DNA of 64,000 nucleotides from Actinomycetota bacterium. Its GTDB lineage: Bacteria; Actinomycetota; Acidimicrobiia; Acidimicrobiales; JAMCPD01. A program made the position numbers and the translations under genes. The stretch spans positions 3,382 to 67,381 of the forward strand of contig JAMCPD010000020.1 of the NCBI GenBank assembly GCA_023379935.1, given 5' to 3'. Under the pieces are notes generated by a model. That model had not been told where the DNA came from and did not search any database. It saw only the letters and a list, made by a program, of their open reading frames with translations. Of the stretch, positions 37,111 through 40,252 are shown piece by piece; the first letter of the stretch is position 1, and the number at the start of each line of letters is the position of its first letter.

Positions 37111-37126
37111 TCAAACATATGTTTGT
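37111..37126. promoter_or_regulatory. LexA/SOS-box-like palindrome overlapping the ruvC start codon
   Basis: TCAAAC-ATAT-GTTTGT, with a perfect 14-bp palindrome CAAACATATGTTTG. Resembles the actinobacterial TCGAAC-N4-GTTCGA. A -10 TAAACT lies immediately upstream. Confidence 0.5.
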
Positions 37127-37655
37127 ATTAGGTATAGACCCCGGACTATCACGATGTGGTTATGGGTGTGTTGATGACGGTTGGGTGTTGGCGGATGCAG
37201 GCGTAATCTCTACCCACCACAGGTTAGAGTTGCCAAAGCGACTTGAATACTTATTTGAGGAGTTGAAACGGCTTATGTTACGGTTGCAACCGCAAGTCGT
37301 GGCAGTGGAAAGAGTGTTTTTTCAAGTAAATGCCCGCACCGCCATGCCAACAGCCCAAGCAGGAGGGTTGGCTTTGTTGGCCGCTCAACAGGCAGGCTGT
37401 AAAGTAGTTCAATATACCTCCAATGAAGTGAAAATGGCTGTTGTAGGTTATGGTGGTGCCACCAAGGCTCAAGTTCAGAATATGGTAATGATGTTGTTGA
37501 GTTTGGATGAGATACCACAACCGGCTGATGTTGCGGATGCTCTTGGTTTGGCAATCTGCCACTTAAGTTCGCTACCGCTGCAAAGGGCGTTGTCGAAGTC
37601 AACTACCCCGCCCTCACGGACGGGGCTTGCGGAAGGTTCCGGAAGCCCAGGTTGA
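37119..37655 (+). CDS. ruvC: Holliday junction resolvase RuvC (last 18 aa encoded by the inserted element)
   Basis: GIDPG, VERVFF, Y...VK.AV.GYG.A.K.QV, D.ADA..AICH. Confidence 0.96.
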   Translation: MFVLGIDPGLSRCGYGCVDDGWVLADAGVISTHHRLELPKRLEYLFEELKRLMLRLQPQVVAVERVFFQVNARTAMPTAQAGGLALLAAQQAGCKVVQYTSNEVKMAVVGYGGATKAQVQNMVMMLLSLDEIPQPADVADALGLAICHLSSLPLQRALSKSTTPPSRTGLAEGSGSPG

Positions 37656-37940
37656 CCAGACCGAGATATTAAAGAAAGAAGGTGAGACAGATATCTACGT
37701 TACATGCAAGTAAGAAGACCTATCCTGGGATGCTTCCTCAGTCCCAGGCTCTAGAATCCGCGTCAGTAGACAACCGTAAGGGCAAGGACGAAACGGGGCG
37801 TGGAGGTTGTGGATACACAACAACTGGCATGCAACATGGTCGAGGGGATCGTTCTTTGGAGTTCACCTCTCTAAAGAACAGTCACCCCGTGACTTCGGAG
37901 AAATCCGGGGGAGCAGGAGCAAGGAGCGTTGTTGCTCCAT
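37578..37940 (+). ncRNA. omega-RNA (HEARO-like scaffold) with a 5' guide taken from the flanking ruvC sequence
   Basis: GTCAAC...GTTGACCAG stem, CTACGTT, CCTGGGATGCTTCCTCAGTCCCAGGCTCT hairpin, CAACATGGTCGAGGGGA, terminal hairpin 37916-37938; directly upstream of the PLMP-like domain. Boundaries approximate. Confidence 0.8.
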
Positions 37941-39397
37941 TTAGTACCCAATCACGGGTGTTTGTGGTTGACAGCCACGGCAACCCTCTCGTTCCCTGTC
38001 ATCCAGCCAGGGCACGGAAATTGCTAAAGTCCAGGCGAGCCAGAGTCCACCATTTGGCTCCGTTTGTCATTAAATTGGTGGATAGGGAAGTAGAGCAGTG
38101 TGAGGTTCCGGGAGTTGTCGTGAAGATTGACCCTGGCTCCAAATACACCGGTATTGTTTGCGCTCGCGTGGATGAGGCCGGTATAACTCATGGGCTGGTG
38201 TCGATCCAGCTTGATCATCGCGGGCAGTTGATTCACAAAAAGATGGGACAGCGGTCCAGCTATCGCCGACGCAGACGGTCAACCAATTTACGTTATCGTG
38301 CACCACGATGGAGAAATCGCCACCCACAGGCTTGTCGGACATGTGGAAAAAATGCAAAACATGGAAGTCGATATTGTGGAACGTGTCTTGAGAGTCGTAA
38401 TTTCATAGATAATGGATATCGCCAATACCGACTTCCACCAAGCCTTTTCCATCGAGTTGCGACCTCCATATCATGGATAAATCGTTTGTCCAGGTGGGCT
38501 CCGGTTACAAGATTGGCGATGGAGCTGGTGAGCTTTGATACCCAGGTGATGCAGAACCCTGAGATATCCGGTGTTCAGTATCAACAAGGTACCCTGGCGG
38601 GCTACGAGGTACGGGAGTATCTTCTTTGTAAGTGGGGGAGGAGGTGTGCATACTGTGGAGATGCCAACACACCTCTACAAATTGAGCACATTCTGGCTCG
38701 CTCCAAAGGTGGAACGAATCGAATCTCAAATCTTACCCTTGCCTGTAGGAAATGTAACGAATCCAAAGGCTCTCTAGCTGTAGATGCTTGGTGCAAGCGA
38801 TATTTCGGAGAACAAAAGGGAAGGAAAATTGTTGCCAGAGTCACCGGCCAGGCCAAAGCTCCCTTGACGGATGCAGCGGCGGTCAATTCCACCCGTTGGG
38901 CATTGTGGCGGGAGCTTGTTAAGACAGGGCTACCAGTTGAGACCGGTACGGGTGGGCGAACTAAATGGAATCGTAGTCGGCAGAACATCCCTAAGTCTCA
39001 TACATTGGATGCTCTGTGTGTAGGTGTGACCGATATCGTCGGTGCAGTGCCAAGCAGTGCACTAACTGTCACCTGCACAGGACGAGGCCAACACCAGAGG
39101 ACAAGACCCAATAGATATGGTTTTGTCCGTCTAAGACTACCTCGACAAAAGACCCATCACGGCTTACGTACAGGTGATTATGTGCGGGCAGTGATGCCAA
39201 AAGGCAAATACAAAGGAGTTCATGTTGGACGTATAAGTGTGCGATCATCTGGAAGCGTTCGAGTAGGAAAGACAGACGGCATTTCTGCGAAGAATTGCAC
39301 GGTTTTGCAACGAGCAGATGGTTATGGATATGAGAGAAAGGAGGAAACGCCTCTCCTCCCCGCCCTTACGGACGAGGTATCCGAGGCGTGAAAATTG
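37598..39397 (+). mobile_element. Non-autonomous IS200/IS605-family OMEGA element (omega-RNA + iscB, no tnpA)
   Basis: Begins GTCAACTACCCCGCCC. Matching subterminal hairpins CCCCGCCCTCACGGACGGGG (37606-37625) and CCCCGCCCTTACGGACGAGG (39358-39377). No target-site duplication. Excision restores the ruvC stop/ruvA start. Confidence 0.92.
37682..39391 (+). CDS. iscB: RNA-guided endonuclease IscB
   Basis: PLMP-like VFVVD..GNPLVPCHPARAR.LL, RuvC-I IDPGSK, Arg-rich bridge helix, RuvC-II ELVSFD, HNH CAYC..IEHI..RSKGG.N..SNL.LAC..CN..K, RuvC-III SH.LDA, C-terminal LQRADGY.Y. The true start may be GTG 37958. Confidence 0.95.
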   Translation: MRQISTLHASKKTYPGMLPQSQALESASVDNRKGKDETGRGGCGYTTTGMQHGRGDRSLEFTSLKNSHPVTSEKSGGAGARSVVAPFSTQSRVFVVDSHGNPLVPCHPARARKLLKSRRARVHHLAPFVIKLVDREVEQCEVPGVVVKIDPGSKYTGIVCARVDEAGITHGLVSIQLDHRGQLIHKKMGQRSSYRRRRRSTNLRYRAPRWRNRHPQACRTCGKNAKHGSRYCGTCLESRNFIDNGYRQYRLPPSLFHRVATSISWINRLSRWAPVTRLAMELVSFDTQVMQNPEISGVQYQQGTLAGYEVREYLLCKWGRRCAYCGDANTPLQIEHILARSKGGTNRISNLTLACRKCNESKGSLAVDAWCKRYFGEQKGRKIVARVTGQAKAPLTDAAAVNSTRWALWRELVKTGLPVETGTGGRTKWNRSRQNIPKSHTLDALCVGVTDIVGAVPSSALTVTCTGRGQHQRTRPNRYGFVRLRLPRQKTHHGLRTGDYVRAVMPKGKYKGVHVGRISVRSSGSVRVGKTDGISAKNCTVLQRADGYGYERKEETPLLPALTDEVSEA

Positions 39398-40252
39398 ATG
39401 ATAGCATTCCTTGACGGTAGATTGATCTCCAAGTTAACACTTGCCGATAATGTCTCCGAAGTTGTAGTCGATGTCGGTGGAATAGGTTATCAAGTATTTG
39501 TCGCTGATCAGACCTTTGCCAAATTACCGGCTTCAACGGACAGAGTGCAGTTATGGATACATACCTATGTCAGAGAAGAAACCTTTGCGCTTTATGGATT
39601 TCTTGATCCAATAGAGAGAAAGTTTTTCCAAATTTTATTGACGGCCCGCGGTGTCGGTCCTTCGCTTGGGCTTTCATTGTTGTCGCTGCATTCGCCACTT
39701 ACGATATGGGAGGCGGTAACGGTAGAAGATGTGGATTTGTTGTCCTTGGTGCCAGGCATTGGACCTAAGACTGCCGCCCGGTTGTGCTTGGAGTTGAAGA
39801 ATCGTTTGCCGGATCGCCATGTGTTGGAGAGTTGGTCGGTAGGTTTATCGGCTTTGGGCTATGAAGCAGATGAGGGGAAAACGAATAAGGACGCAACAGA
39901 CGAAGGTGCGCCAAGCACGGACAAGGCGGTTCTTGTTCCGAAGCCAGCCGGGGACAAGAATGAAAAGAGCGGATCAGTGATTCTTGGGGTGGACGGGCCG
40001 GGGAATGGTTCTGCACTGGTAGATCTAAAGGGCGCCTTAGAGGAGTTGGGATATACACCAAAGGAGATTCGGTTTGCACTCTCGGCTATTTATTCATCAC
40101 AACTGAATGCAAGTATGCTAAATGGTGGAAAACAAGGCAGTGATTCTATGGATAGCCGCCAAAGCAAAGCAAGCCTGCAAGAGTTGTTGCGTTTTGCACT
40201 AAGTGAATTGAGACAGAAAAACGGAAATATAGAAAGGAACAGATCATGGTGA
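39398..40252 (+). CDS. ruvA: Holliday junction branch migration protein RuvA
   Basis: MIAFLDG, DVGGIGY, VRE...LYGF, GVGP, VPGIGPKTA.R..LELK, AL..LGY; long inserted linker. Confidence 0.93.
   Translation: MIAFLDGRLISKLTLADNVSEVVVDVGGIGYQVFVADQTFAKLPASTDRVQLWIHTYVREETFALYGFLDPIERKFFQILLTARGVGPSLGLSLLSLHSPLTIWEAVTVEDVDLLSLVPGIGPKTAARLCLELKNRLPDRHVLESWSVGLSALGYEADEGKTNKDATDEGAPSTDKAVLVPKPAGDKNEKSGSVILGVDGPGNGSALVDLKGALEELGYTPKEIRFALSAIYSSQLNASMLNGGKQGSDSMDSRQSKASLQELLRFALSELRQKNGNIERNRSW

Follow-up and report, generated by a model that had tools for sequence, protein, structure and literature searches.

[quoted passage not shown] (2025, Nat Biotechnol; PMC13180657), who report it as homologous to the REC zinc finger of type II-D Cas9. 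It is located between the FNNR and LTP motifs, where Cas9 has its REC lobe, and has been proposed to have given rise to the zinc finger found at the REC lobe base in type II-D Cas9. Supplementary Table 1 of PMC13180657 provides the sequences of CzcbIscB, DthIscB1, MauIscB-1, and PbaIscB-1, all with the same finger, and a cryo-EM structure of TbaIscB with omega RNA and target DNA (9K30) was deposited by Nagahata et al. (2026), as cited in PMC13622844. The Cas9 recognition lobe is believed to have grown out of this REC-like finger, which has also served to extend the effective guide in engineered IscB editors. In type II-D Cas9 proteins (Cas9d MG34-1, NbaCas9, and YnpsCas9), the zinc finger is part of REC3/REC2. 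IsrB and OgeuIscB have short linkers at the same topological position, which fit between omega RNA stems and the heteroduplex but, unlike the finger, carry no zinc site and share no sequence similarity with it.

Here, we analyzed a 64,000-nucleotide stretch of DNA (the window) in which the list of open reading frames and the raw sequence revealed a long + strand frame between ruvC (37119-37655) and ruvA (start at 39395/39398). This frame is the iscB gene (37958..39391, + strand), which is intact and encodes a 477-aa protein (P0001) when translated from the GTG at 37958. A longer frame called by the gene finder from GTG 37682 was rejected as spurious; it reads through the omega RNA. Homologues of P0001 retrieved in a word-index search bear the name "RNA-guided endonuclease IscB," and the source names of the close ones are mostly Acidimicrobiales metagenome-assembled genomes (MAGs). 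The protein matches the Pfam family RRXRR (PF14239; E = 8.1e-56) in two stretches with a break at the finger site, as well as HNH (PF01844; E = 2e-11) and HNH_5 (PF14279) at residues 230-273. It has a PLMP/RRXRR region with RuvC-I, an arginine-rich bridge helix, and an HNH domain inserted in a split RuvC, with the catalytic residues D58 (within IDPG), E189, H244, H348, and D351 all in place, the last four being invariant or nearly so in aligned IscBs. A HEARO omega RNA is encoded directly upstream on the same strand. An AlphaFold2 model of P0001, built on an alignment of 100 sequences (mean pLDDT 86.8), adopts the overall fold of solved IscB/IsrB proteins, including the C-terminal TAM-interacting domain. 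The best Foldseek matches are IscB/IsrB structures (9nvu and 8csz; E = 6e-24 to 1e-22), and VIA-align ranked solved IscB/IsrB complexes at the top (Z = 22-24 across model residues 1-460); these whole-model searches confirm IscB, the 36-aa finger being beyond their resolution. By its domains, its upstream RNA, and its predicted fold, the window protein is an intact IscB, in agreement with the first-pass annotation of this DNA.

The finger insert (38321..38431, + strand) comprises residues 122-158 of P0001 (HPQACRTCGKNAKHGSRYCGTCLESRNFIDNGYRQYR), residue 122 beginning at 38321 and residue 158 ending at 38431, precisely the interval and peptide singled out in that annotation. It was delimited from sequence, alignment, conservation, the structural model, and subthreshold Pfam matches, and is flanked by RAPRWRNR at the end of the bridge helix and LPPSL at the start of RuvC-II. 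The bridge helix (38222..38320, + strand), which ends in RYRAPRWRNR (the FNNR motif), includes a helix at residues 89-109 of the model; R99, R106, R107, and R114 are invariant and R117, N120, and R121 nearly invariant among 100 aligned IscBs. On the other side, alignment and model delimit the RuvC-II start (38432..38527, + strand), with the LPPS/LTP motif, a helix at 161-180, and catalytic E189. The insert is thus located at the REC position as annotated, between the FNNR and LTP motifs, like the Cas9 REC lobe. P0001 has 36 aa between RWRNR and RLPPSL, whereas most relatives have 5 aa. The cysteines C126, C129, C140, and C143 form a CxxC-x10-CxxC pattern with a first knuckle C126-x2-C129 (38333..38344, + strand; TGT at 38333-38335 and 38342-38344), invariant in 46/46 finger-bearing proteins, and a second knuckle C140-x2-C143 (38375..38386, + strand; TGT at 38375-38377 and 38384-38386), in which C140 is invariant. 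In the AlphaFold2 model, where the finger has a pLDDT of 75-90, a short knuckle carries the first pair, and the second pair opens a helix (141-146). These cysteines are indeed separate from those of the HNH domain (38645..38773, + strand), whose own putative CxxC...CxxC zinc site (C230, C233, C263, and C266) was recognized from the Pfam HNH/HNH_5 matches and from columns that are invariant or nearly so across the 100 aligned IscBs.

Searches with the insert alone against the Pfam zinc-ribbon families DZR_2, DZR, and Zn_ribbon_15 yielded subthreshold matches only (20.0 bits versus a cutoff of 27 for DZR_2 and 16.3 versus 27.3 for DZR), which leaves the insert outside these families. As far as its sequence goes, "zinc ribbon" is a statement of resemblance to a ribbon or knuckle, with no family assignment. 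The finger-coding DNA also contains a 15-nt inverted repeat (38362-38376/38423-38437; 14/15 complementary). It keeps only 2 to 10 of 15 Watson-Crick pairs in five relatives, was rejected as a feature, and is probably due to chance.

To describe the conservation of the finger, 270 proteins were aligned with MAFFT, namely, P0001, the top 120 among some 8,000 hits in the word index, and 149 representatives of 50%-identity clusters. Twenty of these do not cover the finger site, and counts refer to the remaining 250. As anticipated in the first-pass annotation for compact IscBs, 174 of the 250 have 12 residues or fewer at the site, typically five (e.g., TRPKG), the Cys pattern occurs in 65, and inserts of other kinds, 14 to 132 aa long, are found in 11. 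The finger is present in 11 among the 150 cluster representatives listed. An alignment of 46 finger-bearing proteins shows no variation at C126, C129, or C140 and at least 90% conservation at C143, which is replaced by H in two of them. The x10 spacing is kept in 60 of 61 distinct inserts, the last ligand being C in 59 and H in 2. Conservation extends beyond the predicted ligands to P123, G130, N132, A133, H135, Y139, R147, and the tail F-V-D-N-G-Y-R, so that finger-bearing proteins share a further motif consisting of P, CG-N-A, and RxFVDNGYR. Among 45 distinct 36-aa inserts, C126, C129, N132, A133, and C140 occur in 45/45; C143, P123, and R155 in 44/45; Y139 and G153 in 42/45; and D151 in 40/45. 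The mean net charge is +4.8 (range, +2 to +11). The four-cysteine insert is therefore real, conserved, and more than a chance arrangement, and its cysteine pattern and the conservation of these residues are consistent with the zinc-finger-like character initially assigned to it.

Three further observations concern variation at this site. In the IscB representative P0196, which has a 57-aa insert, the knuckles are 24 residues apart instead of 10, and the expansion falls between the ligand pairs, where Cas9d has its helical REC insertion. P0223 and P0240 have Cys-free inserts of 106 to 132 aa at the same site, a different REC-like insertion. Finally, P0032, P0033, and P0038 carry a finger close to that of the window clade, while the rest of the protein groups with finger-less IscBs (support, 0.29 to 0.32), a pattern that may reflect recombination of the linker region.

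Comparison with published proteins identifies the window segment as the REC-like zinc finger known from a subset of IscBs (CzcbIscB, DthIscB1, MauIscB-1, PbaIscB-1, and TbaIscB). P0001 has an insert between the FNNR and LTP/LPPS motifs, four predicted zinc ligands (CxxC...CxxC/H), and a finger sequence homologous to those of published members. CzcbIscB, DthIscB1, MauIscB-1, and PbaIscB-1 resemble it in site, length (36 to 37 aa), and CxxC-x10-CxxC spacing, and CzcbIscB-type systems share PLMP, RuvC, HNH, and a HEARO-type omega RNA with the window. Aligned by eye with the printed supplement, the window and CzcbIscB fingers are identical at 22/37 residues. The window IscB is nonetheless a different ortholog, with homologues named after Acidimicrobiales MAGs, whereas the published proteins come from an anaerobic digester and Firmicutes. 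The best PDB match of P0001 is TbaIscB (9K30), with E = 1e-53 for the single sequence and 5.3e-96 for a profile of finger-bearing proteins, and a 91-aa fragment around the finger alone retrieves it at E = 6e-10. TbaIscB, which also retains the PLMP domain, aligns across the whole finger with no gaps, its four ligand positions being occupied by C, C, C, and H. VIA aligned 369 residues of the two proteins (Z = 22.6; 26% identity). TbaIscB differs in its fourth ligand, His rather than Cys (CCCH), and in the tail after the finger. The window protein, for its part, is carried by a transposon.

In type II-D Cas9 nucleases, a zinc motif follows the bridge helix at the position homologous to the window finger, and NbaCas9 (9K32) has FNNR, four residues, and then CxxCGKN, as in the window. 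The same 91-aa fragment produced a weak match to NbaCas9 (E = 1.3), aligned to the first knuckle of the window finger. In Cas9d, however, a helical REC insertion, about 76 residues long, interrupts the ligand set (C182, C187, C264, and H267), there is no PLMP domain, and the guide is a CRISPR RNA, whereas the window protein has no helical REC lobe. We rejected classification of the window protein as a type II-D Cas9, as PLMP/RRXRR is present, the insert comprises no more than 36 aa and a single short helix, and the guide is a HEARO omega RNA in a mobile element. A phmmer alignment to OgeuIscB sets the nonhomologous linker of that protein opposite the finger.

Among the REC grafts printed in Supplementary Table 3 of PMC13180657 are inserts that match those of P0010, P0094, and P0050 letter for letter, P0010 being 79% identical to P0001. 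Because inserts of its own clade are in print, the finger belongs to a characterized clade and is not novel, and the first-pass annotation has to be corrected in this respect. On the strength of these alignments, the finger is one already described, and the window protein is an ordinary further example in which the finger was not independently acquired. The feature, its position, the proposed homology to the Cas9 REC finger, and the insert sequences of the clade having all been published, the locus opens no new question. It offers one more natural ortholog, apparently active as judged from its intact catalytic residues and the two identical copies in a 1.9-Mb genome, which might be of use as a candidate compact editor or be paired with a finger-less protein for a natural comparison with and without the finger.

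As to function, it is very likely that this known IscB REC-like zinc finger acts as a zinc-held module contacting the omega RNA scaffold and the guide:target duplex, by analogy with its homologues. The four cysteines (C126, C129, C140, and C143) would hold one zinc ion, around which some 36 residues would form a small knuckle-plus-helix module, strongly basic and located beside the bridge helix. Judging from its homologues, this module would touch the scaffold of the omega RNA as well as the guide:target heteroduplex at its backbone, and such contacts may stabilize or check the R-loop. In a cryo-EM structure of an engineered IscB, the homologous finger is described as touching the duplex, the omega RNA scaffold, and RuvC-II, which renders plausible the contact with the guide:target duplex suggested for the window finger at the outset. 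The zinc motif of Cas9d is reported to bind sgRNA stem 3, and its mutation to reduce or abolish cleavage; an Asn three residues past the second Cys and nearby basic residues bind the RNA backbone (PMC11903963). In the window protein, N132 is three residues past C129 and invariant in 45/45 inserts. The IsrB structure is reported to have a 17-aa linker at this place that fits omega RNA grooves and the heteroduplex. Because of these contacts in engineered IscB, Cas9d, and IsrB, the finger most likely represents a zinc-stabilized basic REC linker that would bridge omega RNA and heteroduplex.

The distribution of the finger was assessed on a midpoint-rooted FastTree phylogeny of 214 proteins with the insert columns masked; the other 56 of the 270 aligned proteins were excluded for insufficient length or lack of coverage at the finger site. 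The finger-bearing proteins are spread over more than one clade of this 214-leaf tree, for which Fitch parsimony counts 10 finger changes, versus a mean of 52 and a minimum of 43 upon shuffling. Single finger-less proteins are the sisters to finger-bearing clades of 9 and 19 members (supports, 0.94 and 0.95), and close finger-less relatives (57 to 60% identity) have omega RNAs much like those of finger-bearing loci. The motifs shared across distant lineages argue, at the sequence level, for one origin with losses or exchange over repeated invention. Among the best 80 loci recovered from one genome per GTDB species, the finger occurs in 1 of 73 site-readable ones, in an Actinomycetes MAG (L004). 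Of 100 further genomes from the order to which the window belongs, two gave a match at E ≤ 1e-30, both with the finger, and a metagenome scan retrieved 14 loci, of which three have the finger, all on one contig. One genome of the same order (G037) contains several fragmentary or stop-interrupted copies of a finger-bearing IscB (L085-L090), with one TGA and one TAG inside the matches; these are decaying IscB copies.

In the known layout of IscB omega RNAs, the 5' guide lies outside the element end. The omega RNA scaffold of the window (Rfam HEARO, RF02033; 37598..37855, + strand) was detected by cmscan with 102.9 bits, compared with a gathering score of 83 (E = 2.2e-21; model positions 1-211 of 211), and was aligned with the omega RNAs of 12 related loci. 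The RNA probably extends to about 37957, and, from the known layout, its presumed guide segment would correspond to the flanking DNA at the ruvC 3' end (37581..37596, + strand). A search of 20 loci gave HEARO hits at or above the gathering score in 13. When the omega RNAs of this small sample, 6 finger-bearing and 7 finger-less, were aligned with MAFFT, no indel or hairpin tracked the finger; the 6 finger-bearing RNAs come from three lineages, with three on one contig and one beside a broken gene. HEARO lengths are 241 to 258 nt with the finger and 229 to 269 nt without it. The omega RNA of L005, the nearest finger-less relative with DNA in hand (57% identity), is much like the finger-bearing ones. 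A hairpin at 37664-37696 is an insertion relative to the HEARO model, and its loop contains the Shine-Dalgarno-like GAAGGTGA/GGAGGTGA. This loop is kept in finger-bearing loci and in some finger-less ones (L005, L012, and L017), and the start codon of the spurious long frame (GTG 37682) falls inside the hairpin.

The approximately 10 gains or losses, together with the similar omega RNAs of finger-less relatives, indicate that basic IscB function does not require the finger, whose contribution may be small. We propose only tentatively that a broad IscB branch (Actinomycetota, Firmicutes, and the Tba/Cas9 lineage) has long possessed the finger as a plug-in module, and that about ten times this module has been cleanly removed, or put back by recombination, with no matching change in the omega RNA. 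If so, natural sister pairs with and without the finger would differ mainly in effective guide length or mismatch checking, and the origin of the Cas9 REC lobe would be older and more reversible than the single "acquisition step" of current schemes. The same evidence could be read as a sign that the zinc site only rigidifies the connection between bridge helix and RuvC-II, making no important contact with nucleic acid and being near neutral, as this too would be in line with at least 10 gain/loss events on 214 leaves, with finger-less sisters at nodes supported at 0.94 to 0.95, and with the lack of an omega RNA indel tracking the finger in 6 finger-bearing and 7 finger-less loci. We regard such a purely structural role as rather unlikely, given that surface-type residues other than the ligands (N132, H135, R147, and DNGYR) are strongly conserved, that the net charge is about +5, and that polar and basic residues of the homologous Cas9d motif are reported to bind RNA, with loss of activity in the mutants (PMC11903963).

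The first-pass annotation had instead interpreted the insert as an independently acquired mini-REC zinc ribbon, which would be previously undescribed and specific to the window clade. The scattering of finger-bearing proteins over the tree and the rarity of the finger in GTDB species genomes (1 of 73 readable loci) are compatible with independent acquisition. Nevertheless, the same length, ligand spacing, and P..C..CG.NA...C..C/DNGYR motifs recur in distant lineages and in CzcbIscB, DthIscB1, MauIscB-1, and PbaIscB-1, TbaIscB aligns without gaps, and the clade's own inserts are those printed in PMC13180657. This reading is already contradicted and is, in our opinion, highly improbable. Of the checks suggested together with it, alignment and phylogeny were run: they found the finger in published IscBs and distributed over more than one clade, and neither the supposed independence, at odds with the gapless match to TbaIscB, the by-eye identity with CzcbIscB, and the first-knuckle match to NbaCas9, nor the supposed novelty, at odds with Supplementary Table 3, was upheld. 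The REC-like finger shared with these published IscBs remains our preferred interpretation.

The omega RNA and iscB make up the entire content of a 1,805-bp mobile element located between ruvC and ruvA (37597..39401, + strand). The genome (1.9 Mb in 25 contigs, 90.8% complete) carries a second copy on another contig, and the two loci are 100% identical over exactly 1,805 bp (L001 1140-2944 and L002 1140-2944) and have unrelated flanks. No Y1 transposase (IS200/605 TnpA, PF01797) was found in this 90.8%-complete genome (G000), so that the element, if mobile, would depend on a transposase outside what was seen. The finger has scarcely any chance of being a docking or regulatory site for a host factor or a transposase acting in trans, or a redox/zinc sensor, a role for which nothing specific speaks beyond this missing transposase and against which stands the lack of a partner gene within the 1,805-bp element.

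Both copies are placed exactly at a gene junction, ruvC/ruvA in the window and a sugar-kinase-like ORF/PLP-enzyme-like ORF in L002. The upstream ORF of both ends in the same omega RNA-encoded tail (..STTPPSRTGLAEGSGSPG), and the identical block ends in TTGATGA, at which the downstream gene of both starts. This arrangement suggests insertion beside an ATGA-type target/TAM overlapping the start codon, and our guess is that the ...ATGA common to the right end of both copies would fit an RTGA-type TAM. A 20-nt, hairpin-like subterminal repeat (direct repeat D1) is found near both ends of the element, its left copy at 37606..37625 (+ strand) and its right copy at 39358..39377 (+ strand), with 18/20 identical positions. 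These repeats are GC rich and in direct orientation, the right copy falling in the last codons at the iscB 3' end, and they look like the subterminal hairpins of IS200/605-type elements.
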